NCBI GenBank assembly: GCA_042091575.1 | Contig: JBELHE010000001.1 | Location: forward strand, 1 to 41,002 | Source: Cryomorphaceae bacterium | GTDB taxonomy: Bacteria > Bacteroidota > Bacteroidia > Flavobacteriales > Flavobacteriaceae | Reading direction: 5' to 3' | Length of the DNA: 41,002 bases | Part shown: one piece after another, positions 8,251-29,608 of the stretch | Position numbering within the stretch: the stretch's first letter is position 1 | Layout of the letters: every line of letters begins with the position of its first letter | Notes under the pieces: model-generated | Told to the model about the DNA's origin: nothing | The model's input: only the letters and a program-made list of their open reading frames with translations | Databases searched by the model: none | Position numbers and translations under genes: made by a program

Positions 8251-8259
8251 ACTGTAAAA

Positions 8260-9372: not shown

Positions 9373-9378
9373 ATTAAG

Positions 9379-15014: not shown

Positions 15015-16150
15015 TTTAACTCCTCTATATTTATTATTGTTTCAGGATTGACACCCATTTTGACAAGATTATTATATATATCCTCAAAATAATGTGGTCT
15101 ACAAATAATTAATTTATCAACTTTATTTTTAACCAAGTTCTTTGGAGGTTCTATTCTTGGTAGCCCGCTTAGCCATTTCATTCCAACCTTATATTCATCC
15201 CCATCGAAATATCTTATATTTTTGAAATTTTTATAATTATAACCATATTCTTCTCCACCTGCATAAAAACCAATAGATTCTCCTTTATTAATCATTTCAT
15301 CTAATTTCATTTTAATATTATTTTGTTTAATATTTAATCCATTTCCATATTTTTTTAGATTATTTAATTCTTCTTTTTGGATTTCCAATGGCCATTTATA
15401 GGTAGTTTTCTCATCCAAAAATCCCCATATCATCAACTCGTTTTTGTTTTTTGTAAGACTGATAGATGAATTAATAAATCCCTGAGAATGAAATAATTTA
15501 ACTCCATTTCTTGGAGTAAAATAATTTATATGTTGATGAATAAGGTGATCTAAGTTGAACTCTAGAAATGAAAGCTCTGAGTTAGGCACTAAATGAAAAA
15601 ATAGTCCATTATTTTTCAAACAAGCTCTACTTTGTTCAAAAAATGATCCTAAATCATCAATATGTTCAAGACATCCATATGAAAAAATACAATCAAATTT
15701 TTCGCTTATTATTTCCTTTGATAAAATCTCTTTATGAATTTCTAATCCATATTTCTCAATTGCGACATTAGCTTGAGGACCTATTTCAATTCCTTTAACA
15801 ATAGCTTCCTTTTTTTTCAGTTCATTTAAAAGAGTTCCATTTCCACAACCTATTTCTAAAAGTTTTTTCCCTGAAACATCTCCACCCATAACAGAAATTA
15901 ATTTATCAGAAAATTGATTCATTCTTAAAGTAGATAAGTCACTCTCACCAAGTGGTGTAGATACGAAACTGCCTATTTCATATAGTTTCTCTAGAGCTAT
16001 TTTTATTTCATCGTTTAATATCAGGCGAGGTATGGAGTACTCTGGGTGAATACCCATTTTAAAGGGTAAAGATAGTGGTAAAGTTTTAAAATCTTCTCTT
16101 ATGGCTCCAGCATAAAACGGGTGGTCAGAAATATGAATTATAGCTTTCAT
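15005..16150 (-). CDS. Class I SAM-dependent methyltransferase with an extra C-terminal domain
   Basis: 381 aa. 'KLLEIGCGNGTLLNEL' is SAM motif I and 'FDCIFSYGCLEHIDD' follows it. About 150 further C-terminal residues resemble the sugar C-/O-methyltransferase C-terminal domain layout. Confidence 0.8.
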   Translation of the reverse strand: MKAIIHISDHPFYAGAIREDFKTLPLSLPFKMGIHPEYSIPRLILNDEIKIALEKLYEIGSFVSTPLGESDLSTLRMNQFSDKLISVMGGDVSGKKLLEIGCGNGTLLNELKKKEAIVKGIEIGPQANVAIEKYGLEIHKEILSKEIISEKFDCIFSYGCLEHIDDLGSFFEQSRACLKNNGLFFHLVPNSELSFLEFNLDHLIHQHINYFTPRNGVKLFHSQGFINSSISLTKNKNELMIWGFLDEKTTYKWPLEIQKEELNNLKKYGNGLNIKQNNIKMKLDEMINKGESIGFYAGGEEYGYNYKNFKNIRYFDGDEYKVGMKWLSGLPRIEPPKNLVKNKVDKLIICRPHYFEDIYNNLVKMGVNPETIINIEELNCL

Positions 16151-16190
16151 TATATTTTAGATTTAAAATTATAGATCATTAATTTTTTTA

Positions 16191-17039
16191 TTATTCAAAA
16201 TCATTTAATTCAAACCCTCTTCCTAATGCGTCAATCTTTTTTCTTACCCATTTTTTTGATTCTTTAGCTAAAAAATAATATGGATCTTCGTTTAGTCTAT
16301 TTGTCCAATAATCACATACTTTTCTAACTGAAAATAGAGTTATATAATTCACATCTGTAAATATTTTATATTCATAAAGTAAATTTTCATTTAACAAGTC
16401 TAAATGAATCTTTTTCCAATCGTATTTAATTCTTTTTTTTAAAGGTGAGACTTGATAGTCTAGGATAACATTTGTCTCTAAACTATTATTTTTTACTATA
16501 CCATAAAACTTTTTTGAATACCTATATAAATCTTTTTTTGTAATATTCTCCACATAGTGTAATATTGATGTAAGACTAATATCTGAACCATAGTGACAGT
16601 AAACTGATTTGTTTTCATATAAATAATGAAACTCTGAACCAAAGGAAAATGGATTTATAACTTGTCCTGATTTAATATTCTCAATCGGATATTTTCCCAT
16701 TCCAGAAAAATTAAATACTGGAGTTGTTGTTCTCCAGTGACAAAATTTTCTAAAATAATTATTTAAATGACCTACTTGACATATATCCTCATTTACATTA
16801 TATAAACCTGTTTTTGTAAAATCATAATTAAAAGTTGGCATCCAAATATTAAATTCTGAAAAAATATTATTAATGTTATTCATGTGTTTTTCTAATAAGT
16901 CTATTTTCGACTTAAACTTAAAGAGAAAAAGATTTTTGATATCTGAGTGAATCAAAACATGTTCACCGCCTAGTTTTCTGGAAACTGATTTCACTTTTTT
17001 ATTTATTTTCAAAAATGTACTAGAATCTATATACTGCAT
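16191..17039 (-). CDS. AAC(3)-fold (Antibiotic_NAT-like) acyltransferase candidate
   Basis: 282 aa. 'LGGEHVLIHSDIKNL', 'NIWMPTFNYDF' and 'QVGHLNNYFRKFCHWRTTTPVFNFSGMG' follow the order of the conserved blocks of aminoglycoside 3-N-acetyltransferase-family proteins (..vHsS.., ..mPtft.., ..G.l.e.fr...R..hP..Sf...G). Confidence 0.5.
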   Translation of the reverse strand: MQYIDSSTFLKINKKVKSVSRKLGGEHVLIHSDIKNLFLFKFKSKIDLLEKHMNNINNIFSEFNIWMPTFNYDFTKTGLYNVNEDICQVGHLNNYFRKFCHWRTTTPVFNFSGMGKYPIENIKSGQVINPFSFGSEFHYLYENKSVYCHYGSDISLTSILHYVENITKKDLYRYSKKFYGIVKNNSLETNVILDYQVSPLKKRIKYDWKKIHLDLLNENLLYEYKIFTDVNYITLFSVRKVCDYWTNRLNEDPYYFLAKESKKWVRKKIDALGRGFELNDFE

Positions 17040-17062
17040 TTTAAGTTATTGTTAATTTTAAA

Positions 17063-17302
17063 TCATAATTTAGATTCAATTGATAAAATTATCTCTCCAA
17101 TATTTTTCCAATTATTTATCTCTCTAGAATTAAATTTTATTTTAAATTTTTTTTCTATTTCAACAATTAAAATAATATGATTAAGAGAATCCCATCCTTC
17201 AATATCCATTGCAGAGTTTTCTTCACTTATCTGTATTTCTTCCTCTAAAACATCTATAAAAACTTCATTTAAAGTTTTTAATATTTCTGTTCTTTTCATC
17301 AT
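17063..17302 (-). CDS. Acyl carrier protein
   Basis: 79 aa and acidic. 'IEGWDSLNHIILIVEIE' contains the DSL phosphopantetheine-attachment serine motif at the usual position. The 5' end overlaps the FkbH-like gene by 38 nt. Confidence 0.8.
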   Translation of the reverse strand: MMKRTEILKTLNEVFIDVLEEEIQISEENSAMDIEGWDSLNHIILIVEIEKKFKIKFNSREINNWKNIGEIILSIESKL

Positions 17303-19013
17303 ATATTTTAATTTTTGTTTCTAATCTTTTTTTCATAGATGTCTTTAATGAATACTTATCCCTGTTTTTTTTAAATCCTAATTTTGAGTATAGATCTTTA
17401 ACAATTGTATTTTTTGATGTTCTCTTGTATTCTGAGTTAATTTGATTTATTTTTTTTCTCACACAAAAATCTTCAACGTTATTAAGTATGAAATTTTCCA
17501 TTCCTCTTCCAAATACTCTACAACTCATCGCCCAATTTTCAATAAAAACTTTATTTGATGACATCATTGTTAAAATGACATAACTAATAATTCCATAATC
17601 CCCAAACTTATCTTTTAAATGAAACACTAACCCATATTTATTATCTGATCTCATTATTTCAAATAAATCTTCTTCTGAATAACGAACAGTTCTTAAATTA
17701 AATTGATTTGATCTTTGAGATAATTGAGAGACTCTTGGGATATTAAATTCAGTTAGATAATCTATTTTGGATTCCATTTCAAGATTAATCATATAGTCTG
17801 ATAAATCCGTGAATTTGCTTTTTGATTTTTCTCTTTCATACTCAGTCTGATATAGTTTAGTCCTATCCTTATCTAAATTAGAAATATTGTTAGTCTCAAA
17901 TAGATTTTCATCATAAAGAAATTGTAAATAGTTTGATGGATCCTCTGGCATTTCAGGAACAGTTATGTCTGGTATATTATCCCTTACTAAATTTCTCTCG
18001 TAAGGATTATCATCAATAAATACAATTGAATCAAATCCAATATTTAAAACCTTCTGTATATTTTTTATATTATCAACTTTAGAATTCCAATTTGCAACAA
18101 AAACAGAGATGTCATCCAAAGATAGAACCATATCTGGGTGGTTAATAAAAACATTCTTTGCCGCGCTCTCATTATTTTTAGAACAAATACAGATTATTAT
18201 TCCTCTTTGTTTGAGCTTTTTAACCCAATATTGAAAATCAACAAAAGCTTTACCAACACCTAAATTACCTAACTGAATGTTCTCTATTCCATCATCCCCT
18301 ATAATCCCTCCCCATAATGTATCGTCTAAATCTAGGATCAAGCATTTTTTAAAAATTGAGTTTTGTGATAATAATATGTCAATAATATTTTTTGAAATAT
18401 GTGGAAGTGTGTCAAGATGAAAGATCATGCCATAATTTACATACATAGATAAATCAACCATATTTTTGGAACCAATTCTATTTTGTAGAGTAGATATATC
18501 AAGAATACATATTCGATTTTCGTTCAAAGAAAATTCACTAATTAAAAAATTTAATTTTCTCAAATGATATATAAAAGAAGTCCTGCTTTTTGATGAAAAA
18601 TTTCCATAAAGTTGATCATTTAATTCATAAAAATTAAATAGTATTACTTTAGATTTATTAGACTTTTGTATTCTCTCAACTAATTTTTTAATTCTATCAA
18701 ATTGTTTTTGAGAAAAATCCTCAGAGCTAGAATTTGAATTATATTTTTTTAATAGTGAATGAGTAGATTCAAAAATAATAGTTGTATCAAAATTCTTATT
18801 ATTATATGAAGATTCGGGGTTAAGTATTTCATTGTCAATTTGATTGATGGGAGCTTCCCATATAGATAGATTAAATAATTTTTTTAAACCATATCCGTAG
18901 ATAGTTTTTTTAAGAAATTGAGTAGTTTGATCTGATAATATAGCTATACTATTCTTTTTAAAGCTTGAGACATCTTTCTTTTTTATTTGTAATAATTCCC
19001 TAAATGAATACAT
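17265..19013 (-). CDS. FkbH-like protein (HAD subfamily IIIC phosphatase domain plus acyl-S-Cys/GNAT-like domain)
   Basis: 582 aa. 'CLILDLDDTLWGGIIGDDG' is HAD motif I (DxDxT) as in FkbH. 'IVFIDDNPYER' is HAD motif IV. The C-terminal 'ENWAMSCRVFGRGMENF' matches the conserved SCRV.GRG block that carries the catalytic Cys. Confidence 0.8.
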   Translation of the reverse strand: MYSFRELLQIKKKDVSSFKKNSIAILSDQTTQFLKKTIYGYGLKKLFNLSIWEAPINQIDNEILNPESSYNNKNFDTTIIFESTHSLLKKYNSNSSSEDFSQKQFDRIKKLVERIQKSNKSKVILFNFYELNDQLYGNFSSKSRTSFIYHLRKLNFLISEFSLNENRICILDISTLQNRIGSKNMVDLSMYVNYGMIFHLDTLPHISKNIIDILLSQNSIFKKCLILDLDDTLWGGIIGDDGIENIQLGNLGVGKAFVDFQYWVKKLKQRGIIICICSKNNESAAKNVFINHPDMVLSLDDISVFVANWNSKVDNIKNIQKVLNIGFDSIVFIDDNPYERNLVRDNIPDITVPEMPEDPSNYLQFLYDENLFETNNISNLDKDRTKLYQTEYEREKSKSKFTDLSDYMINLEMESKIDYLTEFNIPRVSQLSQRSNQFNLRTVRYSEEDLFEIMRSDNKYGLVFHLKDKFGDYGIISYVILTMMSSNKVFIENWAMSCRVFGRGMENFILNNVEDFCVRKKINQINSEYKRTSKNTIVKDLYSKLGFKKNRDKYSLKTSMKKRLETKIKIYDEKNRNIKNFK

Positions 19014-19069: not shown

Positions 19070-20449
19070 TTAAATTGAAAAATTTAAATTTTTAATCTGA
19101 ATACTATCTTTAGTGGACATTTCAATAAACGAGGTGTTTGACCCAAAAAGACTTCCAGTTTTAATAGTCTTCCATTTTGTTGCAATAATTGAACCATTAA
19201 ATCTATATAGTTTTTCTTTATCAAATGAAAGGTTTCTAAATCTACCTGGATTAATTAAATCAAGCCCCAACTTACCATAATTGAACATAGGCTCTCTTTC
19301 TTCTTGGACCGAAACAACAGAATCTGAACCAGATACCAATAAATTATTAATGGCTTTGTCAATATGTATTCTTCTTCTATTTATTGCATGTAAACTAAGG
19401 TACATAACTATATCAGGAAAAATTCCAGTCTCTTTAGCATAATGTTCACCAGCAGAAAACATAAAATCTCTTATAGGAATATTATTAGTTTCATTGTCTT
19501 GAGTCCTTAATAATCTTATATGGTTTGGAACTTTATTTTTATTCTCTAATTCCTCAGAAAAATCTAAAACACTTTGACTCTTAGAATAGACAATAAGATC
19601 ATCAATTTCGTTTGACTTTAAAGCATTATTAATAGCAATCTCTAATAGTGATTTGCCTCTAATTTTTTTATATGGAACATTTTTTAAACTAGGATAAGAC
19701 TCTTTAATTGGAATTAAAGCTACTATTTTTAAATTATTTTCTCCAATAGTCTTTTTTCTAATCTCATGAAGAATTTTTGCTCTTGCTTTCAATAATCTAG
19801 AATTATCTTTACTTAGAGATTTATCATGTTGCCTGTAGTAAAATAAAGGTAAATCAATGCTTACAGCTCCTATTTTTTTATAAAGTTTATACCAAAGATC
19901 CCAACCATCTTGGGCATCTACTCCCTCAGAATATCCTCCTGCTATTCTTAGTGACTGTGTTTCAAACATTGTACATGCACCATGAGGAGGTAGTTGACCT
20001 GTTAAATCTTCATCTCCTAGCTTATGTCTTGTTTCAACACCAATAATCTTTCCACTATAATTAGTATAAAAGTAATTACCATAGGCAATACCTGCCTTTG
20101 AATTCTTTTCAAGCTTTTCAACCATTATGAATAACGCAATTTCATTCAACCAATCATCAGCGTCAAGTCTTATCATGTATTTACCATTTGCTTTTTCTAA
20201 AACTTCATTAGCTACTTTTTGAAGGCCTTTTGGTGTTTTATTTTTAATAAAAAATATTCTTGATGGATATTTTTCTTTATATTTTTTAGCAACCAATTCT
20301 GTATTATCATCAGAGCCTTCATCAATTATAAATAGTTCCCAGTTTATATATATCTGATCAACAATACTTTGGATAGACTGATCGAGAAACCTTCCATAAT
20401 TTCTGGACGGAATATAAATTGTAACTAGTGGTGAAGTTTTCATAATCAT
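19070..20449 (-). CDS. Fusion protein: N-terminal GT2 glycosyltransferase plus C-terminal cytidylyltransferase-like (CTP_transf_3-like) domain
   Basis: 459 aa. Residues ~8-215 carry 'VTIYIPSRNYGRFLDQSIQSIVDQ', 'IIDEGSDDNT' and 'RLDADDW' (GT2). Residues ~240-459 carry 'IVALIPIKESYPSLKNVPYKKIRGKSLLEIAINNALKS', which resembles the NeuA/KdsB N-terminus. The usual PAR-GS-K loop is replaced by PIKESYPSLK. Confidence 0.7.
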   Translation of the reverse strand: MIMKTSPLVTIYIPSRNYGRFLDQSIQSIVDQIYINWELFIIDEGSDDNTELVAKKYKEKYPSRIFFIKNKTPKGLQKVANEVLEKANGKYMIRLDADDWLNEIALFIMVEKLEKNSKAGIAYGNYFYTNYSGKIIGVETRHKLGDEDLTGQLPPHGACTMFETQSLRIAGGYSEGVDAQDGWDLWYKLYKKIGAVSIDLPLFYYRQHDKSLSKDNSRLLKARAKILHEIRKKTIGENNLKIVALIPIKESYPSLKNVPYKKIRGKSLLEIAINNALKSNEIDDLIVYSKSQSVLDFSEELENKNKVPNHIRLLRTQDNETNNIPIRDFMFSAGEHYAKETGIFPDIVMYLSLHAINRRRIHIDKAINNLLVSGSDSVVSVQEEREPMFNYGKLGLDLINPGRFRNLSFDKEKLYRFNGSIIATKWKTIKTGSLFGSNTSFIEMSTKDSIQIKNLNFSI

Positions 20450-21507
20450 TTTTTATAATCTATGTCCTTAAAAACTGCCTTTAATGGTTCGATATCTTTT
20501 AGAGCTTTTGACCCTTCCATCTGAGAGAAAAATCTAGCATCTGTTCCAGCTAAAGGTCTCAAACAAATCATATCCTGTTTTTTTATTATTTCTCCCTTTT
20601 TTAAAGGTTTATTTAAATATATAGCACGTCTAAAAGATTTGTGATGATTGTTATCAATCTCCGTTTGTAACAGTTTTTTCTCTGAATTACCTCTAATCTC
20701 ACTAACCAAGTTTATATGATCCTTTAACTCATCAACCTCTTTTTTGGTTAGCGAAACTTTATGATCTCTGAATTTTTTATTTTTTCTATCATCTGTAAAG
20801 TGAAACTCTAAGACATTGGCCCCCATAGTAGCTGCAATTTTGAGTGCATCAATTCCCTCAGTGTGATCTGAATAGCCAACAGACAGTTTAGTAATTTTTT
20901 TGTAATCCAACATAACATCTAAGTGAACATCAGATTCTACTATTGGATACATAGAAGTACATTGAAGTAGACAGATCATTTCTTTGTTTTTATAATTACT
21001 ATCAAGATTTTGAATGAACCCTATCGTTTCAATTACCTCTTCTTTGGTAGACAAGCCTGTTGACAAAATGATAGGTTTTCTTAGTTTTACTATTTCCTTA
21101 ATTACAGGAAAAGCTGTTAAATCACCCGAGCCAATTTTATAAAATTCTACGTATGGATTTATCCAACTTAAATCCTCTGAACTCCATATTGAAGATGTAT
21201 AAAGTTTTCCATTAGAAATACATTTTTTAGCAAGAGCAATATGTTGGCTCTTGGATAATTCAAATTTTTGAAAGTGTTTATGTCTTTTTGGATTCTCAAT
21301 TTTACTTACTAGAGAGTCAGCATTATAAATTTGAAATTTAATTACATCTGCTGCTGAATCTATTGCTAAATCAACTAGTAAATTAGCTTTTTCATAATCT
21401 CCTTCATGATTTCCTCCAATTTCAGCAATTAGTAATGGTCTGTTTAGGCCATTCCAGGGTGAGCTAAATTTACTTTTTAAACTATTATCTAAATATCTAT
21501 TTTTCAA
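20446..21507 (-). CDS. NeuB-family nonulosonic acid synthase (NeuB/PseI/LegI/SpsE type) with C-terminal SAF-like domain
   Basis: 353 aa. 'PLLIAEIGGNHEGDYEKANLLVDLAIDSAADVIKFQ' is the NeuB N-terminal signature. The C-terminal 'LKKGEIIKKQDMICLRP' looks like a SAF domain. Confidence 0.85.
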   Translation of the reverse strand: MKNRYLDNSLKSKFSSPWNGLNRPLLIAEIGGNHEGDYEKANLLVDLAIDSAADVIKFQIYNADSLVSKIENPKRHKHFQKFELSKSQHIALAKKCISNGKLYTSSIWSSEDLSWINPYVEFYKIGSGDLTAFPVIKEIVKLRKPIILSTGLSTKEEVIETIGFIQNLDSNYKNKEMICLLQCTSMYPIVESDVHLDVMLDYKKITKLSVGYSDHTEGIDALKIAATMGANVLEFHFTDDRKNKKFRDHKVSLTKKEVDELKDHINLVSEIRGNSEKKLLQTEIDNNHHKSFRRAIYLNKPLKKGEIIKKQDMICLRPLAGTDARFFSQMEGSKALKDIEPLKAVFKDIDYKK

Positions 21508-21509
21508 TT

Positions 21510-23279
21510 TTATCTACTTTTAGAAATTAAATAATCACCTATCAATAAATGATGTAGTCCACATCTAATAAAAGTTGAGATAGCATCATCAGGGCTTCCT
21601 ACAATTGGCTCACCATGAATATTAAATGAAGTATTCATCAAAGCTCCAACTCCTGTTAAATTTTCAAAAGCCTTAATCAAAGAGTGGTATGAAGGGTTGT
21701 CTTCCTTAAAGACAATTTGGGGTCTTGCAGTTCTATCAAATGGATGTAACCCTGCGGGAATATCCTTTTCAGCTAAACTTGTTGTGTCAAATCCAACTGC
21801 CATAAAACGTGAGTCTATGGATTTTGAATTCTTTATATAGTCGTGTTCTCTCTCGGAAATAATACTTGGTGCAAAAGGCATCCAGAAATCTCTCATTTTT
21901 ACTAATTTGTTTATATGATGTATAACCTCAGGTTTTCTTGGATCAGCAAGAATAGATCTGCTCCCAAGAGCTCTTGCTCCAAACTCCATCCCTTCATTAC
22001 CAAAACGCGCAACAACATCCCCTTTTGCTAATAATTTTGCTATCATATCGTTGTCTGCTTGTTTAACAGAATAATCATTTGATAGATTTTTTTCAAGAGA
22101 TTTTTTAATTTCGATGTTTGAAAAAGATGGGCCCAAATAGCCATTTGCTGGAGCTATAATTTCACTAACACTTTTTTTCTCAAGTAAAGCTAAGTAAGCA
22201 GCTCCAATTGATATTGATTCATCACCTGGACCAGGAGGAACAAAAAGATAGTTTAAACCATCTAACTCTGTTATTAATTTATTTGCTTTTATATTTTGTG
22301 CAACCCCACCAGATAGGACTATATTCTTAATACCCGTTTCATTTATTCCATTTGAAATCCAATTCACCAGAAGCTCTTCGCATCTTTTTTGTATTCCATA
22401 AGCAATTGCATCAAACCTTTGTCCCTCTAACTTTTCTTTGAAGTAAAAAAAATGATCTTTTATTTCTTTTTTATACTTGAAGCCGAGTCCATCATTTTGC
22501 AATGTTTCAGCATATACATTATACGCTTCATTTCCATACTTCTCAGAATTATAGGCTGCAAGACCCATTAATTTATATTCATGCTCAGCTGGTCTCATCC
22601 CTAAGAGCAAAGTAGCATACCTATAAAGTCTACCAATATTACAATTTGAAGATCTAGAAATTTCATTTAAAAGTTGTCCAGGACTTCCTTTTGAAACTGT
22701 TCCATTAGCATTATCTCCAAAGCCATCCATAGTATAAACTAGTAGGTCCTTGTCTTTTAATGGACACATCATATAAGAATAATAGGCATGACACTTATGG
22801 TGATTGTAATAAGAAATTTTTTGTTCACTAATGTTAAGAAAATCTGCCATATGTTTTACTCTTGCGTTCCACATTCCATCTGAATCTGACTCATTATTTA
22901 TTAAACTTTCGTCATATGGAAAATTTTTCTTTTCAACTCTGTGAGATAAAACATCTAAATATTTTGGGTTTTTATTTTCAATTAACTTTGGATACCAATA
23001 TTCTTTTTGCTCTTTCCAATAGTCTAATACAGTTAAATTCGCATTTCTACCTGTGTAAAAATAGCCTGGAGAAAGAGTATTTGACGACATAGCAACTTTA
23101 TCAATTTGAGTTGATTTAATTCCACCCTTTTTTAATACACATTTAATTGCTTTTTCAGGAAAACCATAGTGATTTTTTTGTCTTGACAGCCTTTCTTCTG
23201 CAACAGCACATTCTAATTTTCCATCAATTATTAAAGCTGCGCTTGCGTTATGTCCGTCATGTATTCCAAGAATTATCAT
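21510..23279 (-). CDS. Carbamoyltransferase, NodU/CmcH family
   Basis: 589 aa. 'MIILGIHDGHNASAALIIDGKLECAVAEERLSRQKNHYGFPEKAI' and the overall length match NodU/CmcH O-carbamoyltransferases. Confidence 0.9.
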   Translation of the reverse strand: MIILGIHDGHNASAALIIDGKLECAVAEERLSRQKNHYGFPEKAIKCVLKKGGIKSTQIDKVAMSSNTLSPGYFYTGRNANLTVLDYWKEQKEYWYPKLIENKNPKYLDVLSHRVEKKNFPYDESLINNESDSDGMWNARVKHMADFLNISEQKISYYNHHKCHAYYSYMMCPLKDKDLLVYTMDGFGDNANGTVSKGSPGQLLNEISRSSNCNIGRLYRYATLLLGMRPAEHEYKLMGLAAYNSEKYGNEAYNVYAETLQNDGLGFKYKKEIKDHFFYFKEKLEGQRFDAIAYGIQKRCEELLVNWISNGINETGIKNIVLSGGVAQNIKANKLITELDGLNYLFVPPGPGDESISIGAAYLALLEKKSVSEIIAPANGYLGPSFSNIEIKKSLEKNLSNDYSVKQADNDMIAKLLAKGDVVARFGNEGMEFGARALGSRSILADPRKPEVIHHINKLVKMRDFWMPFAPSIISEREHDYIKNSKSIDSRFMAVGFDTTSLAEKDIPAGLHPFDRTARPQIVFKEDNPSYHSLIKAFENLTGVGALMNTSFNIHGEPIVGSPDDAISTFIRCGLHHLLIGDYLISKSR

Positions 23280-23290
23280 TTTTTCTATTT

Positions 23291-24016
23291 TTAATTATTA
23301 TTAATATTTGTTGAGAAATTAAGCTCCCATTTATTAGCTATATCTATAATTGACTTTGAGCTTAAATGGATTTTTTGTTCTTTGTGTTTTTCTATAATCC
23401 ACCCTATCTTTCTTAAGTCGTCTTCATTATCTAGAACTAATCTAGTTGAAATATTTTTTAAAAAAATATTTTTATGGTTTACTAAATTAATTTTAAAATT
23501 ATTGTGGTTGTCATAGAAAAACTTTGTGATATGTTCTTTGTCAGAGTTATTTATTATTAAATCATTTACTGAATCTAAAGATTTTACATTGATTATTTCT
23601 GCTGATAAACCAAATGGAACTGATCTAGGGAAAATATTTGTTGTTATATCTGCATCAGAAGTTTTATGGCTAGATAAAAGCTCATCATATATTTTTGAAT
23701 TAATGAAAGGCCTATCTCCACATATCCTTGCAAAATATTTATAACCAAATTTTTTTGATGCCTGAAGAGCTCTATCAATCACATCTTCCTCGCTACCTCT
23801 AAAAACATCTATTCCAAGATCATTTGCAAAGGCTTCAATTTTATCATCTTCATGACTTAATGAAGTAGCAATACATAAATGGTTGATATTTTTTATCTTT
23901 TTAGATGCATCAATTACTCTTTGGAGTAATGTTATTCCATCAATCATTTTTAATGCCTTACCTGGCAGTCTGGTTGAATTCATTCTAGTAAATATGATAC
24001 CTCCAATTATATTCAT
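23291..24016 (-). CDS. Cytidylyltransferase, SpsF-like (CTP_transf_3 family)
   Basis: 241 aa. 'GGIIFTRMNSTRLPGKALKMIDGITLLQRVIDA' matches the SpsF-type 'QARmgStRLPgK' N-terminus. Confidence 0.8.
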   Translation of the reverse strand: MNIIGGIIFTRMNSTRLPGKALKMIDGITLLQRVIDASKKIKNINHLCIATSLSHEDDKIEAFANDLGIDVFRGSEEDVIDRALQASKKFGYKYFARICGDRPFINSKIYDELLSSHKTSDADITTNIFPRSVPFGLSAEIINVKSLDSVNDLIINNSDKEHITKFFYDNHNNFKINLVNHKNIFLKNISTRLVLDNEDDLRKIGWIIEKHKEQKIHLSSKSIIDIANKWELNFSTNINNN

Positions 24017-25509
24017 ACTCGTTTAGAATTAAAATAGCCTTTAAATAATTCATAGATACCTTTAAATTGTATATCATAAAAATCCTCATTTAGAAATTTT
24101 TCAAACCTTAAAGAACTTCTTGAATTTAATAGCCCTATTAAGCTTTCATCTTTAAGCTTGTCCTTTAAAAAATTAGAGATGTGTGTTTTATTAAATATTT
24201 TTTTTGATAATAATACATTGTATTTTAAATCATCTGACCAGTTAAAAGTGTTTGGGCACCCTGAAAACCAACTTTCGCCAAAGATTATAGACTTTTTTTG
24301 TAAAATAGCAGATTCAATGCCTAAGGTCCCTGTAATAGTTGCTGTAAAAACAGATGCCTTTATTAAGTCTAAAGTTTTATAATTAGGACCAAGAATTTCA
24401 ATATTATTTATGTTTTTAAGAAGTCTATAGAATAATGGACTTCGGCCTCTAAAACCATACAATGAGTCATAAAACATTGATGGATGCTCTTTAACATATA
24501 TCTTAATGTTTCTTGGCACAAATTCTCTTAATTTAAGTATTGCTAAAAATTGATCATGAAAAACACCTCCATCTGGTAAAGTTGTTCTTTCTGGTTCATA
24601 GTGAAGCCCAAAATAAACAAACTTATCTGCAAGATTAACATCTGTTGAAACTGAATTATTAATCGCTTTTAATAGGTTAGTCTTTCTAGTCTTAAGTATT
24701 TTTAATTTTCTTATAGCATTAAATTTAAATGGATTTAAAGGGTTATATTCCTTACTTTCATAATAATGATTTTTTGATTTATACTTTCTTAAAATGTCTT
24801 TAACGAATTTAGTTATCTGCTCAATTTTCCAAGAAGTTTTTTTAGATGCTATTCTTTCAATTTCAGTATGAGGTGTTTTATACATTTCATCACTTCCAGA
24901 TATATTATTTACGTAATTATCTATTTCTTTAGATAATTTTTGAATATTCTTCTCATCTAATTTATTATTAATATTTATAGGTTTATGAGTTATTGCATTC
25001 CTAAGTGAAAGGAGTGGTAGTGGCGTCCATGCATTAAATTTTACAGCCTCTATATTTAAAAAATCACATATCTGTAAAATAGTATAGTGAATATGTGTGT
25101 GTGGATTTTCGACTGAAATGAGAACATCAGGAAGGGATTTTTCAAATTTTCCAAGTACCCAAATAACAGTCATATTAAAAATTGACTCTCTATCTAACCT
25201 ACTCATAACTGCCAAGTCATCTATTCTATCCATCATTTTTAATGCTCTATCTTTAGCAATTAAATAGTTTTTTGAAGTAAAAAAATCATTAAATTTTCCG
25301 TGATATTCTTGTTTTAAAATTTTATGAGATTTCCATTTAAAAAAATCAAAATCTTTTACAACATGCGATCCAAATAATTCTTTAGCACGATTAAGATGAT
25401 TATGGTCACCCATCCATAATATTGGCTCAGCTATTTTATCTTCTCTCAACTTGACAGCTAAATCAAACCAGTGATTATTATTAGTCATGAAGTAAACGTA
25501 TTTTTTCAT
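24013..25509 (-). CDS. Hypothetical protein, candidate Capsule_synth (KpsS/KpsC-like) CMP-ulosonate transferase
   Basis: 498 aa. 'FVYFGLHYEPERTTLPDGG....IKIYVKEHPSMF' resembles the conserved core (..lq.epE... then ..vKeHP) of capsule polysaccharide biosynthesis/KpsS-like proteins. It lies between an oxidoreductase pair and the SpsF-like cytidylyltransferase. The match is by eye only. Confidence 0.35.
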   Translation of the reverse strand: MKKYVYFMTNNNHWFDLAVKLREDKIAEPILWMGDHNHLNRAKELFGSHVVKDFDFFKWKSHKILKQEYHGKFNDFFTSKNYLIAKDRALKMMDRIDDLAVMSRLDRESIFNMTVIWVLGKFEKSLPDVLISVENPHTHIHYTILQICDFLNIEAVKFNAWTPLPLLSLRNAITHKPININNKLDEKNIQKLSKEIDNYVNNISGSDEMYKTPHTEIERIASKKTSWKIEQITKFVKDILRKYKSKNHYYESKEYNPLNPFKFNAIRKLKILKTRKTNLLKAINNSVSTDVNLADKFVYFGLHYEPERTTLPDGGVFHDQFLAILKLREFVPRNIKIYVKEHPSMFYDSLYGFRGRSPLFYRLLKNINNIEILGPNYKTLDLIKASVFTATITGTLGIESAILQKKSIIFGESWFSGCPNTFNWSDDLKYNVLLSKKIFNKTHISNFLKDKLKDESLIGLLNSRSSLRFEKFLNEDFYDIQFKGIYELFKGYFNSKRV

Positions 25510-25541
25510 ATTATTTTATCTAGATAATTATAAGCTGGTGT

Positions 25542-26654
25542 TTATTGTTCATTAAAATATTGAATTTTAATGTGTGAAGAATTAAAGTCACCTTTAATAT
25601 CCTTTACTAGTACAGGCTCGTCATATTCTTCATAAGTTCCATCATACCTATGTATAACCTTTGAATTTAATGCATAGACTCTACCAGTGATTATTTTGTT
25701 TAAAGAATCAAAGTTTTGAAGCATTTGTTTTGATGTAATTAAGTCCTTTTCTACATAACCACTACTTCCAATTAATAAGCTATCTTGGGCAAAATGGGTA
25801 AATTCATACCTATGGATTATCTCAGGGAGGTAGTTTTCACTTTTATAGTTCGTATTATTAAAACCTGAAAAAAGAATCAATTTACCCTTTGGTTTTAATA
25901 ACCTAGTACACTCCTCAAATCCTGATGAGCTTGAACATGCCATAACAGTGATGTCAAATTGGTCTCTTACAGAATTATCTAAAATATTTATGTTTGGAAA
26001 TTCTTTAAATATGTCTTTTAAGATTTCCCTCTTCCCATCTGAAGACTCAATAATAAAAATTTTATTTTTATTATTAATTTGATGTAAGTAAAGTGCATGA
26101 AGGCATCCTATTGGACCTCCACCTAATATACCAATAGAAAAATTATTATTTACAATATCTGCTTTTGAAAGGTTCCATGACCTAATTACACATGATAAAG
26201 GCTCTAAAAAAGAGGATAGTTCAAGTTTTATATCAGACACATCATATAGTTGACTCCTACTCACAAACATCATATCACTGAATCCACTTGGCTCGTTATT
26301 ATCTAGACCTGCATGCCTCATTTTTGTACATAAATTTTCAATTTGATTTTCACACGAGATACATTTTTGTATATCATTTCTAGTCAGGCAATTAGAATGT
26401 GGTAAAAGTGCATATTTTTTTTTAGGATAGCTTTCATCGCTTATATACCCTACAGCTTCATGGCCTCCAATAAAAGGTTTGTCATCAGCAGCTGACTTAG
26501 TGAGATTATATCTTCTTCTCTCTGAATTACAAACAGATGAAACTGCCCAGTCAACTTTGATGTCAGACTTATTTTTTTTAGATATTAAAATATCTTTAAA
26601 AAATACTTTTTTTAGTGGCTCAATGACCAATGCATTAACTTTTAATTTATTCAC
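25542..26654 (-). CDS. Zinc-type medium-chain alcohol/sugar dehydrogenase (MDR family)
   Basis: 370 aa. It has 'FIGGHEAVGYI' (GHE motif), a Cys cluster 'CISCENQIENLC' at the structural-Zn lobe position, and 'ILGGGPIGCLHALYL' (Rossmann). Confidence 0.75.
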   Translation of the reverse strand: MNKLKVNALVIEPLKKVFFKDILISKKNKSDIKVDWAVSSVCNSERRRYNLTKSAADDKPFIGGHEAVGYISDESYPKKKYALLPHSNCLTRNDIQKCISCENQIENLCTKMRHAGLDNNEPSGFSDMMFVSRSQLYDVSDIKLELSSFLEPLSCVIRSWNLSKADIVNNNFSIGILGGGPIGCLHALYLHQINNKNKIFIIESSDGKREILKDIFKEFPNINILDNSVRDQFDITVMACSSSSGFEECTRLLKPKGKLILFSGFNNTNYKSENYLPEIIHRYEFTHFAQDSLLIGSSGYVEKDLITSKQMLQNFDSLNKIITGRVYALNSKVIHRYDGTYEEYDEPVLVKDIKGDFNSSHIKIQYFNEQ

Positions 26655-27711
26655 TTTTGATATTATCTATTATAGTTTGAGTATAATTACCATCACTAAA
26701 TTTGGCAATCTTTATACTTGAAAAATCCTTATCAGAAATTTCTTTGACAAAATGGTATAAACAATCAACATGTGCCCTTAACCATCCCGACGTTACCTTG
26801 GGTGGCGGAAAGTCTGATGCGGATTCTTTATCAAAAAAAGCAGGTAATTTTTTAAAGCCTTTTTCTGGAGATTTTACATTATAGTATTCGTAAAAATTAA
26901 GGTTTTCTAAATTCCATTTTACAGCACCTAAAGAACCATGTATTTCAAGTCTAAGTTCGTCAATTGTCCCTGTTGATATTCTTGAGACCTCAATGAAACC
27001 ATCCACATTATCCTTATCTGTTTCACAAAAAATCCAAGAAAAATCATCAACACTTCTGTCTTTAATTTTAGTTTTTAATTTTTTACTTGTAATTCTGAAG
27101 TTTCCAAATAGAAAATATGCTAAATCAAAAACATGAGGACCCAGATCAATTAATGCTCCTCCTGTATTTTGTTTAAGTCTCCAAGTTATTGGTCTATTCT
27201 CTATATAACTCCCATGTAAATATGAAATTCTAAATTTAAAAATTTTTCCAAGTATTCCATCTGAAATCATTTCTTTGATTTTTGATATTGCAGGTATAAA
27301 CCTATATTGAAAAACTACATTAGAAATATATCTTTTGTTTTTATTGGCAATTTGTAGCATTTTTTCAGATTCAGATTTATTTAAACCAATAGGTTTGTCG
27401 CAAAGCACATGTTTTTTTGATTCAATAGCTAACCTGTAATGTTTGTAATGCAAATCATTTGGTGTGCCAATATATACAGCATCAATAGATTCATCATTTA
27501 AAATATCGTTAATATCTATAGTCACATTTTCAATATTGTATCTATTTTTAATTCTTTTTATATCATCCAGAGATTTTTTATCAGATAACAACAAACTTTT
27601 TACTACAACCCCAGGTATATCTGGATAAAAGTCATTCAATACTTTCGATGCGTGTAAATATGTCTTACCCATAAAACCAAAACCAAAAACTGCTATGTTA
27701 AGTTTTTTCAT
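26647..27711 (-). CDS. Gfo/Idh/MocA-family NAD(P)-dependent oxidoreductase
   Basis: 354 aa with 'LNIAVFGFGFMGKTYLHA', 'DAVYIGTPNDLHY' and 'HVLCDKPIG' (the EKP-like motif). Confidence 0.85.
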   Translation of the reverse strand: MKKLNIAVFGFGFMGKTYLHASKVLNDFYPDIPGVVVKSLLLSDKKSLDDIKRIKNRYNIENVTIDINDILNDESIDAVYIGTPNDLHYKHYRLAIESKKHVLCDKPIGLNKSESEKMLQIANKNKRYISNVVFQYRFIPAISKIKEMISDGILGKIFKFRISYLHGSYIENRPITWRLKQNTGGALIDLGPHVFDLAYFLFGNFRITSKKLKTKIKDRSVDDFSWIFCETDKDNVDGFIEVSRISTGTIDELRLEIHGSLGAVKWNLENLNFYEYYNVKSPEKGFKKLPAFFDKESASDFPPPKVTSGWLRAHVDCLYHFVKEISDKDFSSIKIAKFSDGNYTQTIIDNIKSE

Positions 27712-27713
27712 AA

Positions 27714-28604
27714 TTATCTTCCTTTTGTTCTAGATAAAGTTTTTAATTCAAAATCATAAATTTTTTTATTTCCATCTCCAAGTGCAAGCTCAAAATCTTT
27801 AATAGAGTTAATCATAATTTGCATCCCTCTCGGTTCCAATGACATTGCTTGATCTGTACCCCACATGGCTCTATCTAAGGTTACATGGACTTCAGTAATA
27901 TTAGAACCATAAGCAACTGACATTGCCGTTATTAAAGGAGATGTGTGATGAGATGAAAATCCAACAGGTAATTTAAACCGAGATTTTAACTCTTTAATTA
28001 CTTTCAAATTAAGTTTATCACTTGGGCATGGGTATATACTTGTACATTGCATCAATGCAATCTTTGAATCTTTTAAATTTTTTAATATTTCAGAAATTTT
28101 ATTTAAATCTGTTCCACCTGTTGATATAATCAATGGAATTTTAACTTTCTTCAAATATTGGATGAAATTTTCATCAGAACATTTATCAGAAGGCACTTTT
28201 AAAAAAGGAATATTATAGTTAGTAAGAAAATCTATTGACTCTATATCCCATGCAGAAGCAGACCAATCAATTTTAAGTTTTTTGCAATAATCATCAATCT
28301 CATCATAATCAGATTTAGACAATTCAATCCTTTTTTTATAATCAAAATATGTCATTTCACCCCAAGGTGTCATTCTTAAATTATTTCTTTTATTTTCTGG
28401 AACACATAACTCTGGAACTCTTTTTTGAAATTTAACACAATCAAAACCAATTTCACTACTTATCATGATAAGTTCTTTTGCAAGCTTTATGTCACCATTG
28501 TGATTAATGCCAATTTCAGCAATATTATATGACTTTTCATTACCTGCTTGAAAAATGTTATTGAAACTAAATTGATCTCTGTTTTTTTTATTTATGTAAC
28601 TCAT
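27714..28604 (-). CDS. NeuB-family ulosonate synthase, short form without SAF domain
   Basis: 296 aa. It has the 'YNIAEIGINHNGDIKLAKELIMISSEIGFDCVKFQKR' NeuB signature. The protein ends about 50 aa earlier than 20446..21507 and has no SAF-like tail. Confidence 0.85.
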   Translation of the reverse strand: MSYINKKNRDQFSFNNIFQAGNEKSYNIAEIGINHNGDIKLAKELIMISSEIGFDCVKFQKRVPELCVPENKRNNLRMTPWGEMTYFDYKKRIELSKSDYDEIDDYCKKLKIDWSASAWDIESIDFLTNYNIPFLKVPSDKCSDENFIQYLKKVKIPLIISTGGTDLNKISEILKNLKDSKIALMQCTSIYPCPSDKLNLKVIKELKSRFKLPVGFSSHHTSPLITAMSVAYGSNITEVHVTLDRAMWGTDQAMSLEPRGMQIMINSIKDFELALGDGNKKIYDFELKTLSRTKGR

Positions 28605-28614
28605 AACTTATATT

Positions 28615-29310
28615 TTATTGTATTTTAAACTTTGATTCTGCAATTCTCCAGTCTTCGTCAGAATCAATGTCTACTACCTCATTATTTTTCAAAATTAGAG
28701 GAATTATTTTTTTTCCTGATACTGAGCCAGACATTACAGTTTCTCTTCTAATAATTTCTAAGTCTCCTGCAGAGTAGAAAGTTTCTGGTAATTTTTGTCT
28801 AGGTATATTGTAGGGTTCTAGAATATTTTTTTCATAACCTTGAATATAGTCTCCCTTTGGTTCCCAGTGCCTGTAGGGGTGTTGTTCTGACACTGAAACC
28901 GCTTTTAATGAAGAGGCATTAGAATCATTTTGAATCATTTCCAACCCTTTTTCAATCAAATTAGAAGGTCTTAAAGGAGAAGTAGGTCTTAACAAAATAA
29001 TAATGTGAAATTTCAAGTCATATAATTTTTCACAATTAATTAGAGCATGATAAATAAAATCATAATCTTGTGAAATATCTTGTGAAATATCTTTAGGTCT
29101 GAGAAAGGGTACCTCCCCACCATACTTCTTGGCGATTGCTGCATATCGTCTTGAATCTGTAGATATTACAGTTTTTGTAATTAACTTACATGATTTAGCA
29201 TACTCAATTGTATGGGCAATAAGAGGTCGATCAACAAAGATCTTAATATTTTTATCTTTAATTTCTTTACTACCTGACCTTGCTGGAATTACACATAAGA
29301 TATTTTCCAT
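28615..29310 (-). CDS. neuA: Acylneuraminate cytidylyltransferase (CMP-ulosonate synthetase, NeuA type)
   Basis: 'MENILCVIPARSGSKEIKDKNIKIFVDRPLIAHTIEYA' is the canonical NeuA N-terminus. I start it at the ATG at 29310 (Met15 of the track ORF). That leaves a 10-nt gap to the upstream gene, whereas the track start at 29352 gives a 32-nt overlap. Confidence 0.85.
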   Translation of the reverse strand: MENILCVIPARSGSKEIKDKNIKIFVDRPLIAHTIEYAKSCKLITKTVISTDSRRYAAIAKKYGGEVPFLRPKDISQDISQDYDFIYHALINCEKLYDLKFHIIILLRPTSPLRPSNLIEKGLEMIQNDSNASSLKAVSVSEQHPYRHWEPKGDYIQGYEKNILEPYNIPRQKLPETFYSAGDLEIIRRETVMSGSVSGKKIIPLILKNNEVVDIDSDEDWRIAESKFKIQ

Positions 29311-29320
29311 ATTTGAATAA

Positions 29321-29608
29321 TTATATTTCTTCAATTCTTTTGGTTTTATCACAAATTAAAAGATCGTAAGGGGGCTTTTCTCCAACCGATAGATGGTGAA
29401 ATTCACATCCCCATAATTTTAACTGATTAAAAGTTAACTGATAATAATCTTTTTTTGATACTGACCCTCTAGCAGTCCAATAGGTTATCCTATTATTTTT
29501 ATAAAGAGTGTTTATTTTCATAATATTTTCTTTTATGGGCACTGAATTTTCATAATCGAGGCCTTTAGTTATACATATAGTATTATCTATATCCACATAA
29601 ATGTTCAT
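29321..29608 (-). CDS. Minimal capless HAD-superfamily phosphatase (capsule-biosynthesis phosphatase-like)
   Basis: 95 aa. All four HAD motifs can be placed: 'YVDIDNTI' (DxDxT), 'YWTARG' (Thr), 'GEKPPYD' (Lys) and 'LLICDK' (acidic). The layout resembles small sugar-phosphate phosphatases found in capsule loci. Confidence 0.55.
   Translation of the reverse strand: MNIYVDIDNTICITKGLDYENSVPIKENIMKINTLYKNNRITYWTARGSVSKKDYYQLTFNQLKLWGCEFHHLSVGEKPPYDLLICDKTKRIEEI

Follow-up and report, generated by a model that had tools for sequence, protein, structure and literature searches.

A surface-glycan locus with two NeuB-family synthases

The stretch of DNA analyzed here, referred to throughout as the window, comprises 41,002 nucleotides from a Cryomorphaceae bacterium (contig JBELHE010000001.1 of assembly GCA_042091575.1) and is the entire source contig. 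Its host is an uncultured marine Bacteroidota bacterium: ribosomal protein L27, encoded beside the same genes on a related contig, falls in a 90%-identity cluster with proteins of marine Bacteroidota metagenome-assembled genomes. Our subject is the region from 19070 to 29608, which holds two synthases of the NeuB family and their neighboring genes. Nonulosonic acids shape how phages, grazers, and immune systems see bacterial surfaces, and genome surveys usually infer which sugar is produced by looking at a NeuB homolog together with its aminotransferase and epimerase partners.

The window has a G+C content of about 28% and is nearly one continuous array of minus-strand genes. We scanned every open reading frame (ORF) of at least 80 amino acids across the 41 kb with Pfam and NCBIfam models, and rescanned permissively the ORFs that had no match. 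The content is that of a surface-glycan locus: a WecA-type initiating transferase, several GT1 and GT2 glycosyltransferases, an FnlA/FnlB/WecB-type set, TviB-like and TuaD-like nucleotide-sugar dehydrogenases (uronic acids), an MsbA/PglK/HepA-like ABC exporter, and a Wzy_C ligase. tRNA genes were looked for, and none turned up. The ORF at the contig terminus is not on record elsewhere, and related contigs are short at the rplU end.

An original prediction, made from the DNA letters alone, had placed two NeuB-type ORFs in the region, one with a SAF tail and one without. Pfam returned both at the predicted coordinates, on the minus strand, and we call them NeuB1 and NeuB2, respectively. The region consists of two independent cassettes, module A (25542-29608), which includes NeuB2, and module B (19070-25509), which includes NeuB1. 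Their genes are as follows.

Module A
25542..26654, minus strand: divergent MDR/Zn-ADH-like dehydrogenase (MDR; weak ADH_N and Glu_dehyd_C matches)
26647..27711, minus strand: Gfo/Idh/MocA oxidoreductase (GFO), candidate for a tailoring or precursor redox step (Pfam GFO_IDH_MocA N- and C-terminal domains)
27714..28604, minus strand: NeuB2, SAF-less NeuB-family synthase of 296 amino acids, predicted ulosonate-9-phosphate synthase of the type that makes 2-keto-3-deoxynononic acid (Kdn) 9-phosphate (Pfam NeuB 215.7 bits, E 8.4e-64)
28615..29310, minus strand: NeuA/PseF-like synthetase, predicted to make a cytidine monophosphate (CMP)-ulosonate (Pfam CTP_transf_3 77.6 bits)
29321..29608, minus strand: HAD95, small HAD-like protein of 95 amino acids, candidate ulosonate-9-phosphate phosphatase (HAD motif I DIDNT, that is DxDxT, at residues 6-10)

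Module B
19070..20449, minus strand: GT2-CT, GT2 glycosyltransferase fused to a degenerate CTP_transf_3-like domain (N-terminal Glycos_transf_2 87.4 bits)
20446..21507, minus strand: NeuB1, NeuB+SAF synthase of a distinct clade (Pfam NeuB 198.6 bits, E 1.5e-58)
21510..23279, minus strand: NodU/CmcH-type carbamoyltransferase (Carbam_trans_N 121.9 bits, Carbam_trans_C 190.7 bits, both above gathering scores)
23291..24016, minus strand: SpsF-like CTP_transf_3 cytidylyltransferase (Pfam 88 bits; catalytic Arg, Ser, and Lys kept)
24013..25509, minus strand: unk498, GT-B-fold protein related to KpsC/WbbB beta-Kdo (3-deoxy-D-manno-octulosonic acid) transferases, candidate CMP-ulosonate glycosyltransferase (structural model and family profile)

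The two cassettes occur apart in other genomes

We compared the window proteins with the ORFs of related loci by BLAST and set the gene contexts alongside one another. Metagenome-assembled genomes of Marinimicrobia keep the gene order NeuA-NeuB2-GFO-MDR, with identities of 59-74%, and lack module B. Conversely, Candidatus Tenderia electrophaga has unk498, the SpsF-like gene, the carbamoyltransferase, NeuB1, GT2-CT, and a downstream gene, unk323, in the same order at 33-65% identity, and lacks module A. A TARA contig, L098, shows synteny to the window between the genes we label HTH172 and GT1a, and has neither module A nor a five-gene FkbH cassette that lies between GT2-CT and unk323 in the window. 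Because the cassettes occur apart in other genomes, the two synthases belong to independent, exchangeable units, and the earlier suggestion that the locus might make two different ulosonic acids is borne out to that extent by the separate cassettes of Marinimicrobia, Tenderia, and L098.

The site of exchange can be followed among close relatives. In L098 the ABC exporter gene is followed directly by unk498 (at L098:5573), and the slot between them is empty. In another relative (L097:4133-5985), the same slot holds a HAD95 homolog (74% identity), a different short NeuB (32% identical to NeuB2), and another CTP_transf_3 protein. The slot, which corresponds to the 29605 and 25509 junctions of the window and there holds module A, is thus variable in content, and appears to be a hot spot for the exchange of cassettes for ulosonic acids. 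Cassettes that act as swappable units in otherwise syntenic loci bear on how surface glycans diversify in marine bacteria.

Two further arrangements were seen in the compared genomes. The annotation of Ca. Tenderia electrophaga (CP013099) lists no genes in the stretch L015:5124-8991, where intact unk498, SpsF, and carbamoyltransferase ORFs are present; upstream lie a CTP_transf_3-Aminotran_3 fusion (675 amino acids), a second NeuB+SAF gene, and a sulfotransferase. In Chloroflexota (L008/L009 and many Anaerolineae, such as L017, L019, L022, L026, L029, L030, and L038, among others) a long conserved cassette surrounds a short NeuB in the order (GFO), SDR, CTP_transf_3-HAD fusion, short NeuB, a protein of 538 amino acids without assignment, a second CTP_transf_3 protein, 2-hydroxyacid dehydrogenase, SDR, MptE/Maf-like protein, and GT2. 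A separate set of NeuB+SAF, GT1, and SpsF-like genes often lies upstream, giving another arrangement with two NeuBs, three cytidylyltransferases, and no DegT gene.

Both synthases stand apart from the classical families and from amino-sugar genes

We judged synthase competence by a TIM-barrel domain above the gathering score of the NeuB superfamily (PF03102, 22.1 bits), metal-binding His residues, and catalytic Glu and Lys. NeuB1 and NeuB2 both exceed the score and have the EIG.NH.G, K.Q, SDHT/SSHH, and E.H motifs. Both remain well below the equivalog cutoffs: on the NeuB/NnaB model (TIGR03569, cutoff 399.65) NeuB1 scored 239.8 bits and NeuB2 221.7, and on the PseI model (TIGR03586, cutoff 340.25) they scored 177.9 and 166.7. 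Each scores higher on NeuB/NnaB than on PseI, and neither groups with CjPseI in a neighbor-joining tree built with 100 bootstraps and few references. The NeuB1 family is monophyletic there in 100 of 100 bootstraps, joins NmNeuB in only 15, and stands apart from the Kdn-9-phosphate synthetase of the alga Prymnesium parvum. An atypical ulosonic-acid synthase, as originally proposed, is therefore what NeuB1 appears to be, since it lies below both cutoffs and in a clade of its own. It keeps the classical motifs of synthases that use unphosphorylated sugars and a SAF Arg aligned to Arg314 of NmNeuB; its SAF domain gives a weak match (20.0 bits, gathering score 21), and most of its relatives carry PF08666.

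Gene contexts were collected for each family. For NeuB2, named genomes were scanned with the family alignment and neighboring ORFs labeled, which gave 80 short-NeuB loci among the matches listed. For NeuB1, metagenome contigs were scanned and their ORFs labeled, which gave 48 loci of at least 8 kb.

Neither synthase is accompanied by the usual amino-sugar genes. No DegT/aminotransferase, hexapeptide, or GNAT domain was found by Pfam in any ORF of at least 80 amino acids in the contig, permissive rescan included. The claim that the 41 kb encode no aminotransferase dependent on pyridoxal phosphate therefore stands; its companion, that there is no acetyltransferase, holds for the GNAT and hexapeptide types but had missed the acyltransferase fold of the AAC(3) family at 16191-17039. 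A dedicated hydrolyzing epimerase is missing from the window, as had been said: the only Epimerase_2 protein (7111-8250) is of the non-hydrolyzing WecB type (TIGR00236, 252.8 bits, cutoff 210) and reaches just 89.3 bits on the NeuC model (TIGR03568, cutoff 235.9). Pfam scans of the contig also found no NanE, GNE, or N-acetylmannosamine (ManNAc) kinase domain. In the relatives, a DegT gene lies within 6 kb of the synthase at 1 of the 80 short-NeuB loci and at 2 of the 48 NeuB1 loci, and an FnlC-type epimerase was seen at 3 of the latter over their whole length.

One further sugar set in the window forms part of the context outside both cassettes:

7111..10383, minus strand: fnlA/fnlB/fnlC-like set, 2-acetamido-2,6-dideoxy-L-hexose (WbcJ-type reductase model 226 bits)

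Its PseB-like enzyme scores 464.9 bits on the FnlA model (TIGR04130, cutoff 730) against 325 on PseB (TIGR03589, cutoff 407.75), carries AMGMSK, an MxxxK motif, and lies next to FnlB-like and WecB-like genes; both scores stay below their cutoffs, and the enzyme looks more like FnlA than PseB, as first assigned. We considered whether this set feeds NeuB1, which would yield a fusaminic-acid-like 9-deoxy sugar with no need for an aminotransferase. FnlA is syntenic in Tenderia and close relatives, and such a supply may conceivably operate at this locus, but we rejected it as an account of the cassette in general, since no more than 3 of 48 loci have FnlA within 6 kb of NeuB1.

Could the precursors simply come from elsewhere? 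One or both synthases might be ordinary enzymes of the legionaminic, pseudaminic, or N-acetylneuraminic acid (Neu5Ac) type, fed by DegT-type, acetyltransferase, and hydrolase genes located elsewhere in the genome. The gene absences hold only for the one 41-kb contig that makes up the window; a few relatives do have DegT nearby; the classical motifs and SAF Arg of NeuB1 fit an N-acetylated aldose; and the better scores of both synthases on NeuB/NnaB than on PseI agree with this idea. We nevertheless think it unlikely. Both proteins lie far below the equivalog cutoffs, with NeuB1 in its own clade, and DegT, a PseB/LegB-type dehydratase, and a NeuC-type epimerase are almost never linked to them, in the 48 loci or in the 80 among the matches listed. 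The NeuB1 cassette of Marivirga stands by itself as a complete unit, with unrelated genes on either side, and for NeuB2 the coupling to phosphatases described next already accounts for the absent genes.

Module A resembles a Kdn-type phosphate route

The NeuB2 family is a large group of SAF-less proteins of about 290 amino acids. In the neighbor-joining tree with its few references, it forms one clade with the P. parvum Kdn-9-phosphate synthetase in 91 of 100 bootstraps. The two have four signatures in common, KFQKR after strand 2, KV[PG]S, GFS[SG]HH, and W.G-[TS]D[QH]..SLEP, none of which appeared in NmNeuB, CjPseI, or NeuB1 on inspection of the alignment. We had also tried to place the P. 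parvum enzyme with a NeuB2-family hidden Markov model (HMM); this did not discriminate (P. parvum 179, PseI 184, NmNeuB 133) and was replaced by the motifs and the tree.

The P. parvum enzyme has been characterized biochemically; it is a SAF-less protein of 312 amino acids and strictly specific for mannose-6-phosphate (Man-6-P) (PMC6200933; sequence from the supplement). The published route runs from Man-6-P and phosphoenolpyruvate (PEP) to Kdn-9-phosphate, Kdn, and CMP-Kdn, and needs neither an aminotransferase nor NeuC (PMC6200933). A phylogenetic survey left whole environmental branches of SAF-less NeuBs, including those of Streptomyces, without functional assignment, and tied the use of phosphorylated substrates in NanS to the alpha2-beta2 loop (PMC8208679). 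The KFQKR motif of the NeuB2 family sits in this loop region. Motifs and clade together point to NeuB2 as a Kdn-type ulosonate-9-phosphate synthase, for which the absence of aminotransferase, acetyltransferase, and NeuC would be expected, because the Kdn-type phosphate route needs none of them.

The relatives of NeuB2 are coupled to phosphatases. A CTP_transf_3-HAD fusion lies directly upstream of the short NeuB in 62 of 80 named-genome loci among the matches listed, and 50 of the 80 have a neighboring short-chain dehydrogenase/reductase (SDR). In its HAD half, the fusion matches phosphatases of the KdsC family and is 34% identical to BT1713, the Kdn-9-phosphate phosphatase of Bacteroides thetaiotaomicron. 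Streptomyces loci hold the same pair of fusion and short NeuB, and Streptomyces walls carry Kdn-galactose teichulosonic acid or Kdn polymers (PMC11481543). The original prediction had offered non-aminated, Kdn-like products as one of two alternatives; for NeuB2 this is well supported by clade, motifs, and phosphatase coupling, and for NeuB1 a Kdn-like product finds no such support.

In the window itself the candidate phosphatase is HAD95. It matches TIGR01689 (capsule biosynthesis phosphatase) weakly, has a single PDB match (9iqw, 'Capsule biosynthesis protein', E 4e-5), and showed no similarity to BT1713. Its homologs adjoin NeuB/CTP_transf_3 cassettes in L097, as noted above, and in a JGI contig, L011 (56% identity).

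The NeuA-like protein lies below the PseF equivalog cutoff (TIGR03584, 145.6 bits against 205.7), and its PDB matches are CMP-Neu5Ac synthetases (6ifd, 84 bits; 1eyr, 61 bits). It is 29% identical to the characterized P. parvum CMP-Kdn synthetase and 62% to the syntenic Marinimicrobia gene. R11, S14, and K20 are invariant across the aligned CTP_transf_3 proteins, and both the NeuA-like and the SpsF-like protein have what is expected of a PF02348 synthetase. The listed NeuA-like ORF opens with a GTG (29352), so that it shares 32 bases with the HAD95 ORF. Since its alignment to PseF does not begin until residue 19, translation more likely begins at the ATG at 29310.

The two dehydrogenases resemble sugar-oxidizing enzymes and polyol-phosphate dehydrogenases most closely in structure, at low similarity. 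The best PDB match of the Gfo/Idh/MocA protein is 6a3f ('Putative dehydrogenase', 129 bits) and its best NCBIfam match levoglucosan dehydrogenase (161 bits); the MDR protein matches YahK and galactitol-1-phosphate 5-dehydrogenase at about 33 bits. Their syntenic Marinimicrobia counterparts are 59% and 63% identical, respectively. No dehydrogenase of our panel was detected by phmmer in the Streptomyces short-NeuB loci, where ORF calling is ambiguous at high GC. Since the pair is kept in the marine cassette and went undetected in Streptomyces, we infer that it either tailors the product by oxidizing and reducing a hydroxyl or prepares an unusual hexose phosphate.

A close relative shows a disturbed version of the module. 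In L011:3680-12902 (NeuB2 89% identical), small ORFs stand in place of the cytidylyltransferase region upstream of NeuB2, and the GFO gene is broken into two pieces (181 and 113 amino acids), which suggests decay or sequencing errors. Downstream of NeuB2 lie DegT, CTP_transf_3, and Fe-ADH genes and the HAD95-like ORF of 101 amino acids. The DegT and Fe-ADH genes resemble the aminotransferase/Fe-ADH pair of 8-amino-Kdo biosynthesis.

We propose that NeuB2 would join PEP to a hexose-6-phosphate, of which Man-6-P is the likeliest, and that HAD95 would strip the phosphate from the resulting ulosonate-9-phosphate. The NeuA-like enzyme would then form the CMP-sugar, and the Gfo/Idh/MocA and MDR dehydrogenases may oxidize and reduce a hydroxyl. 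Because these two are kept in the cassette, plain Kdn is probably not the product, which is more likely to be an epimer or a keto derivative.

Module A could instead make Neu5Ac, or another N-acyl neuraminic acid, by way of ManNAc-6-phosphate in the manner of animals. The phospho-sugar route is common to Neu5Ac-9-phosphate and Kdn-9-phosphate synthases, and human NANS accepts ManNAc-6-phosphate as well as Man-6-P (Table 2 of PMC6200933); the signatures in common with the Kdn-9-phosphate synthetase may mark phosphate binding and not the C2 substituent; the best matches of the NeuA-like enzyme to CMP-Neu5Ac synthetases point the same way. However, the contig lacks the NanE, GNE, and ManNAc kinase domains that we looked for, and the comparable members of the branch that have been characterized are Kdn enzymes (P. 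parvum directly, Streptomyces by glycan chemistry, and B. thetaiotaomicron by its phosphatase). A Man-6-P-making phosphomannose isomerase (PMI) domain is also encoded in the locus, although it is not specific to module A. A Neu5Ac product is thus improbable in our view, and we favor a Kdn-type sugar.

Module B is a widespread cassette with its own candidate transferases

The core of module B recurs as a unit. The trio of SpsF-like, NeuB1, and GT2-CT genes is found in 47 of the 48 metagenomic loci, with GT2-CT directly downstream of NeuB1 in 47 of 48 and the SpsF-like gene upstream in 35, fused forms being counted apart. Many members of the NeuB1 family are themselves SpsF-NeuB fusions of about 570 amino acids (P0183, P0209, P0230, and others).

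The modifying enzyme varies. A WbbJ/MAT-type hexapeptide O-acetyltransferase is present in 30 of these loci, a carbamoyltransferase in 10, and a methyltransferase in 8, and the loci with the carbamoyltransferase mostly lack the hexapeptide enzyme. The window's carbamoyltransferase (65% identical to the syntenic Tenderia gene) thus fills the slot held by O-acetyltransferases in other versions of the cassette, and this makes the carbamoyl decoration of the original prediction plausible. A full-text search of a limited literature collection found no paper that links carbamoylation to nonulosonic acids.

GT2-CT, 57% identical in Tenderia, is the third of three CTP_transf_3-type units that had been proposed for the region. 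Two of these are clear; the third has the right fold but is probably not a working cytidylyltransferase. Against Pfam CTP_transf_3, the C-terminal half of GT2-CT scored 20.7-21.1 bits, below the gathering score of 22.6, and so lacks what marks a PF02348 synthetase. Aligned by hhalign with nine true CTP_transf_3 proteins, it matched over 201 columns at 98% probability (E 2.4e-13). In four family members the residues corresponding to Ser14 and Lys20 of the window NeuA-like protein are Tyr/Phe and Val/Leu, and the C-terminal D...D pair is unaligned. The domain is therefore probably a cytidylyltransferase fold that has lost the activity, judging by these substitutions.

For unk498 no Pfam match rose above threshold; Capsule_synth (PF05159) came nearest, with 14.1 bits and E 0.032 (gathering score 20). 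Among its relatives, PF05159 occurs in roughly one in four and PF02350 in none. An AlphaFold2 model (pLDDT 86.9) has a GT-B fold, and Foldseek matched it to KpsC, WbbB, and KrKA, and also to UDP-GlcNAc 2-epimerases. A profile of the family, searched against the PDB, found only KpsC (E 5.6e-4) and WbbB, across an invariant E-H-P motif. Given the PF05159 relatives, the GT-B fold, and profile matches to KpsC and WbbB only, we favor a CMP-ulosonate transferase as the role of unk498. The protein is 37% identical to its syntenic counterpart in Tenderia and is present in 10 of the 48 NeuB1 loci. NeuB-unk498 fusions of about 850 amino acids also occur (P0337, P0343, P0355, P0368, P0374, P0390). In Marivirga harenae (L013/L014:7354-8784), unk498's position is taken by a 476-amino-acid glycosyltransferase of the BFO_1060 family (NF046086, 457 bits), a family named after a Tannerella forsythia gene; it lies upstream of genes in the order Hexapep, SpsF, NeuB1, methyltransferase, and GT2-CT.

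NeuC, LegG, and PseG are all GT-B-fold enzymes, and unk498 might accordingly be a divergent nucleotide-sugar hydrolase or 2-epimerase that feeds free aldose to NeuB1. Its best Foldseek E-values are to UDP-GlcNAc 2-epimerases (3e-6), and fusion to NeuB would suit consecutive steps of a pathway; but it has higher TM-scores to KpsC/WbbB (0.25-0.39) than to the epimerases (0.16-0.22), its family profile matches no epimerase, its relatives carry PF05159 and never PF02350, Marivirga has a glycosyltransferase in the equivalent place, and a protein present in only 10 of 48 loci cannot be the general aldose source, so we give this role very little credence.

With unk498 as the favored transferase, module B would work as follows. 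NeuB1 would condense PEP with an unphosphorylated aldose, the SpsF-like enzyme would CMP-activate the product, and the NodU-type enzyme would O-carbamoylate it, where other versions of the cassette would O-acetylate or O-methylate. The KpsC/WbbB-like unk498 could then transfer the residue, and the linked GT2 protein may act on or next to it, its degenerate cytidylyltransferase-like domain serving as a recognition module. Taken further, module B might constitute an undescribed ulosonic-acid pathway, with a distinct NeuB clade, an aldose taken straight from central metabolism without amino-sugar steps, SpsF activation, O-carbamoylation, and a GT2 whose dead cytidylyltransferase fold reads the ulosonate; we put this forward as a tentative possibility.

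Two cassettes, proposed to serve one glycan

We propose that each of the two cassettes makes and activates its own ulosonic acid for one surface glycan, with a Kdn-type product from module A and a separate one from module B, and we would give this reading a probability of roughly 60%. Domain identities, cassette boundaries, synteny, fusions, clade placement, and co-occurrence counts are its observed basis; substrates, the order of steps, and the roles of the dehydrogenases, HAD95, unk498, and GT2-CT are read from these.

Several points weigh against it. NeuB2 and the algal Kdn-9-phosphate synthetase are only 32% identical, the family HMM fails to separate that enzyme from PseI, and the neighbor-joining tree that joins them was built from a short reference list without BT1714, human NANS, or LegI. 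HAD95 is unusually small, unrelated to BT1713, and weak in its database matches, and as a phosphatase it is the weakest link in our model of module A. The roles given to the dehydrogenases are guesses, and making the aldose-phosphate substrate is equally possible. In module B, the structure of unk498 is also like that of UDP-GlcNAc 2-epimerases, with all TM-scores low (about 0.16-0.39), and the SAF Arg of NeuB1, a substrate contact in NmNeuB, would leave room for an N-acetylated aldose made elsewhere.

On balance, the absence of amino-sugar genes that the original prediction had stressed is real. For NeuB2, a pathway of a known kind accounts for it: SAF-less synthases bring their own phosphatase, and the missing genes are therefore not a gap. 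More broadly, N-acetylneuraminate synthase is the usual annotation of the large environmental branch of SAF-less 'NeuB' proteins, for which phosphate-dependent synthases of the Kdn type are the better reading.

Accessory genes around the modules

Downstream of module B lie a five-gene accessory cassette, identified by Pfam and NCBIfam, and unk323; a further gene that could bear on Man-6-P supply lies beyond module A.

12673..13644, minus strand: unk323, without family assignment (no Pfam or NCBIfam match), travels with the unk498 version of module B
13644..19013, minus strand: five-gene accessory cassette between GT2-CT and unk323, made up of the next five entries
13644-15014, minus strand: DUF4910/DUF2172/HTH_47 protein (DUF4910 307 bits)
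15005-16150, minus strand: S-adenosylmethionine-dependent methyltransferase
16191-17039, minus strand: AAC(3)-like acyltransferase fold (Antibiotic_NAT 30.1 bits, gathering score 25)
17063-17302, minus strand: acyl carrier protein (ACP), 79 amino acids (PP-binding 25.4 bits, permissive rescan)
17265-19013, minus strand: FkbH (FkbH_N 161 bits, TIGR01686 300 bits)
34509..34865, minus strand: stand-alone mannose-6-phosphate isomerase cupin domain, 118 amino acids, possible Man-6-P supply, context (MannoseP_isomer 112.8 bits)

Homologs of unk323 lie downstream of GT2-CT in Tenderia, L097, L098, L106, and others. The FkbH cassette, absent from the syntenic L098, is partly present in L097 and L109, again directly after GT2-CT. 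Proteins of the FkbH type charge ACP with a glyceryl unit, and the five-gene set therefore suggests an acyl decoration of (O-methyl)glyceroyl type. ACP-delivered acyl groups, the other decoration in the original prediction, are plausible by synteny alone.

The PMI cupin domain matches the C-terminus of the GMP_PMI model (113 bits). We considered it as a dedicated Man-6-P supplier of module A and rejected it, because L098 has the gene without module A and it is thus not specific to that module. It adjoins a 140-amino-acid CTP_transf_like protein of the glycerol-3-phosphate cytidylyltransferase or RfaE domain II type (the pair spanning 34086-34865), and both are conserved in L098.

Comparison with known systems

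The closest parallels to module A are the Kdn routes of B. thetaiotaomicron (synthase BT1714, phosphatase BT1713, CMP-Kdn synthetase BT1715) and P. parvum, in which, as proposed for module A, a NeuB-family synthase acting on a sugar-6-phosphate is combined with a HAD phosphatase and a NeuA-family enzyme (PMC6200933). These routes likewise need no aminotransferase, acetyltransferase, or NeuC, and B. thetaiotaomicron belongs to the same phylum as the host, Bacteroidota. The likeness in the SAF-less state refers to the P. parvum enzyme, the BT1714 sequence lying outside the comparison. Module A differs in having a 95-amino-acid HAD of another subfamily, not of the KdsC/BT1713 type, and two extra dehydrogenases. 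The loci of actinomycetes, including the Streptomyces Kdn producers, and of Chloroflexota share the short-NeuB family (39-49% identity), the order of cytidylyltransferase and then synthase, and the absence of aminotransferases. They differ in that their phosphatase is fused to the cytidylyltransferase, whereas the window has a separate small HAD, and many of them have an SDR in place of GFO and MDR.

For module B, the nearest systems are SpsE/SpsF of Bacillus subtilis (legionaminic acid of the spore crust) and the classical NeuB/LegI/PseI synthases, with which it shares the pairing of a NeuB+SAF synthase with an SpsF-type enzyme and the retained motifs and SAF Arg. NeuB1 matches SpsE (1vli) at about 89 bits and NmNeuB and PseI at about 105-123 bits. 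In contrast to the Sps system, module B has no SpsC/SpsD/SpsG-type partners, and it has an obligatory GT2-pseudo-cytidylyltransferase and a carbamoyltransferase. KpsC/KpsS (GT107) and WbbB (GT99) resemble unk498 in their GT-B-type fold, in an E-H-P motif that aligns with the 'vHP' of KpsC, and in PF05159 relatives, and unk498 sits in a locus predicted to make CMP-ulosonates; it differs in its marginal sequence similarity, its low TM-scores, and a predicted donor that is a nonulosonate and not Kdo.

We conclude that module A is best filed as a variant of the Kdn route of B. thetaiotaomicron, P. parvum, and Streptomyces, with a different type of phosphatase and two added dehydrogenases. Module B is a cassette widely distributed over several phyla and without a characterized member, and its SpsF/NeuB/GT2-CT core offers a concrete target in the search for an acidic sugar and a transferase architecture not described before.

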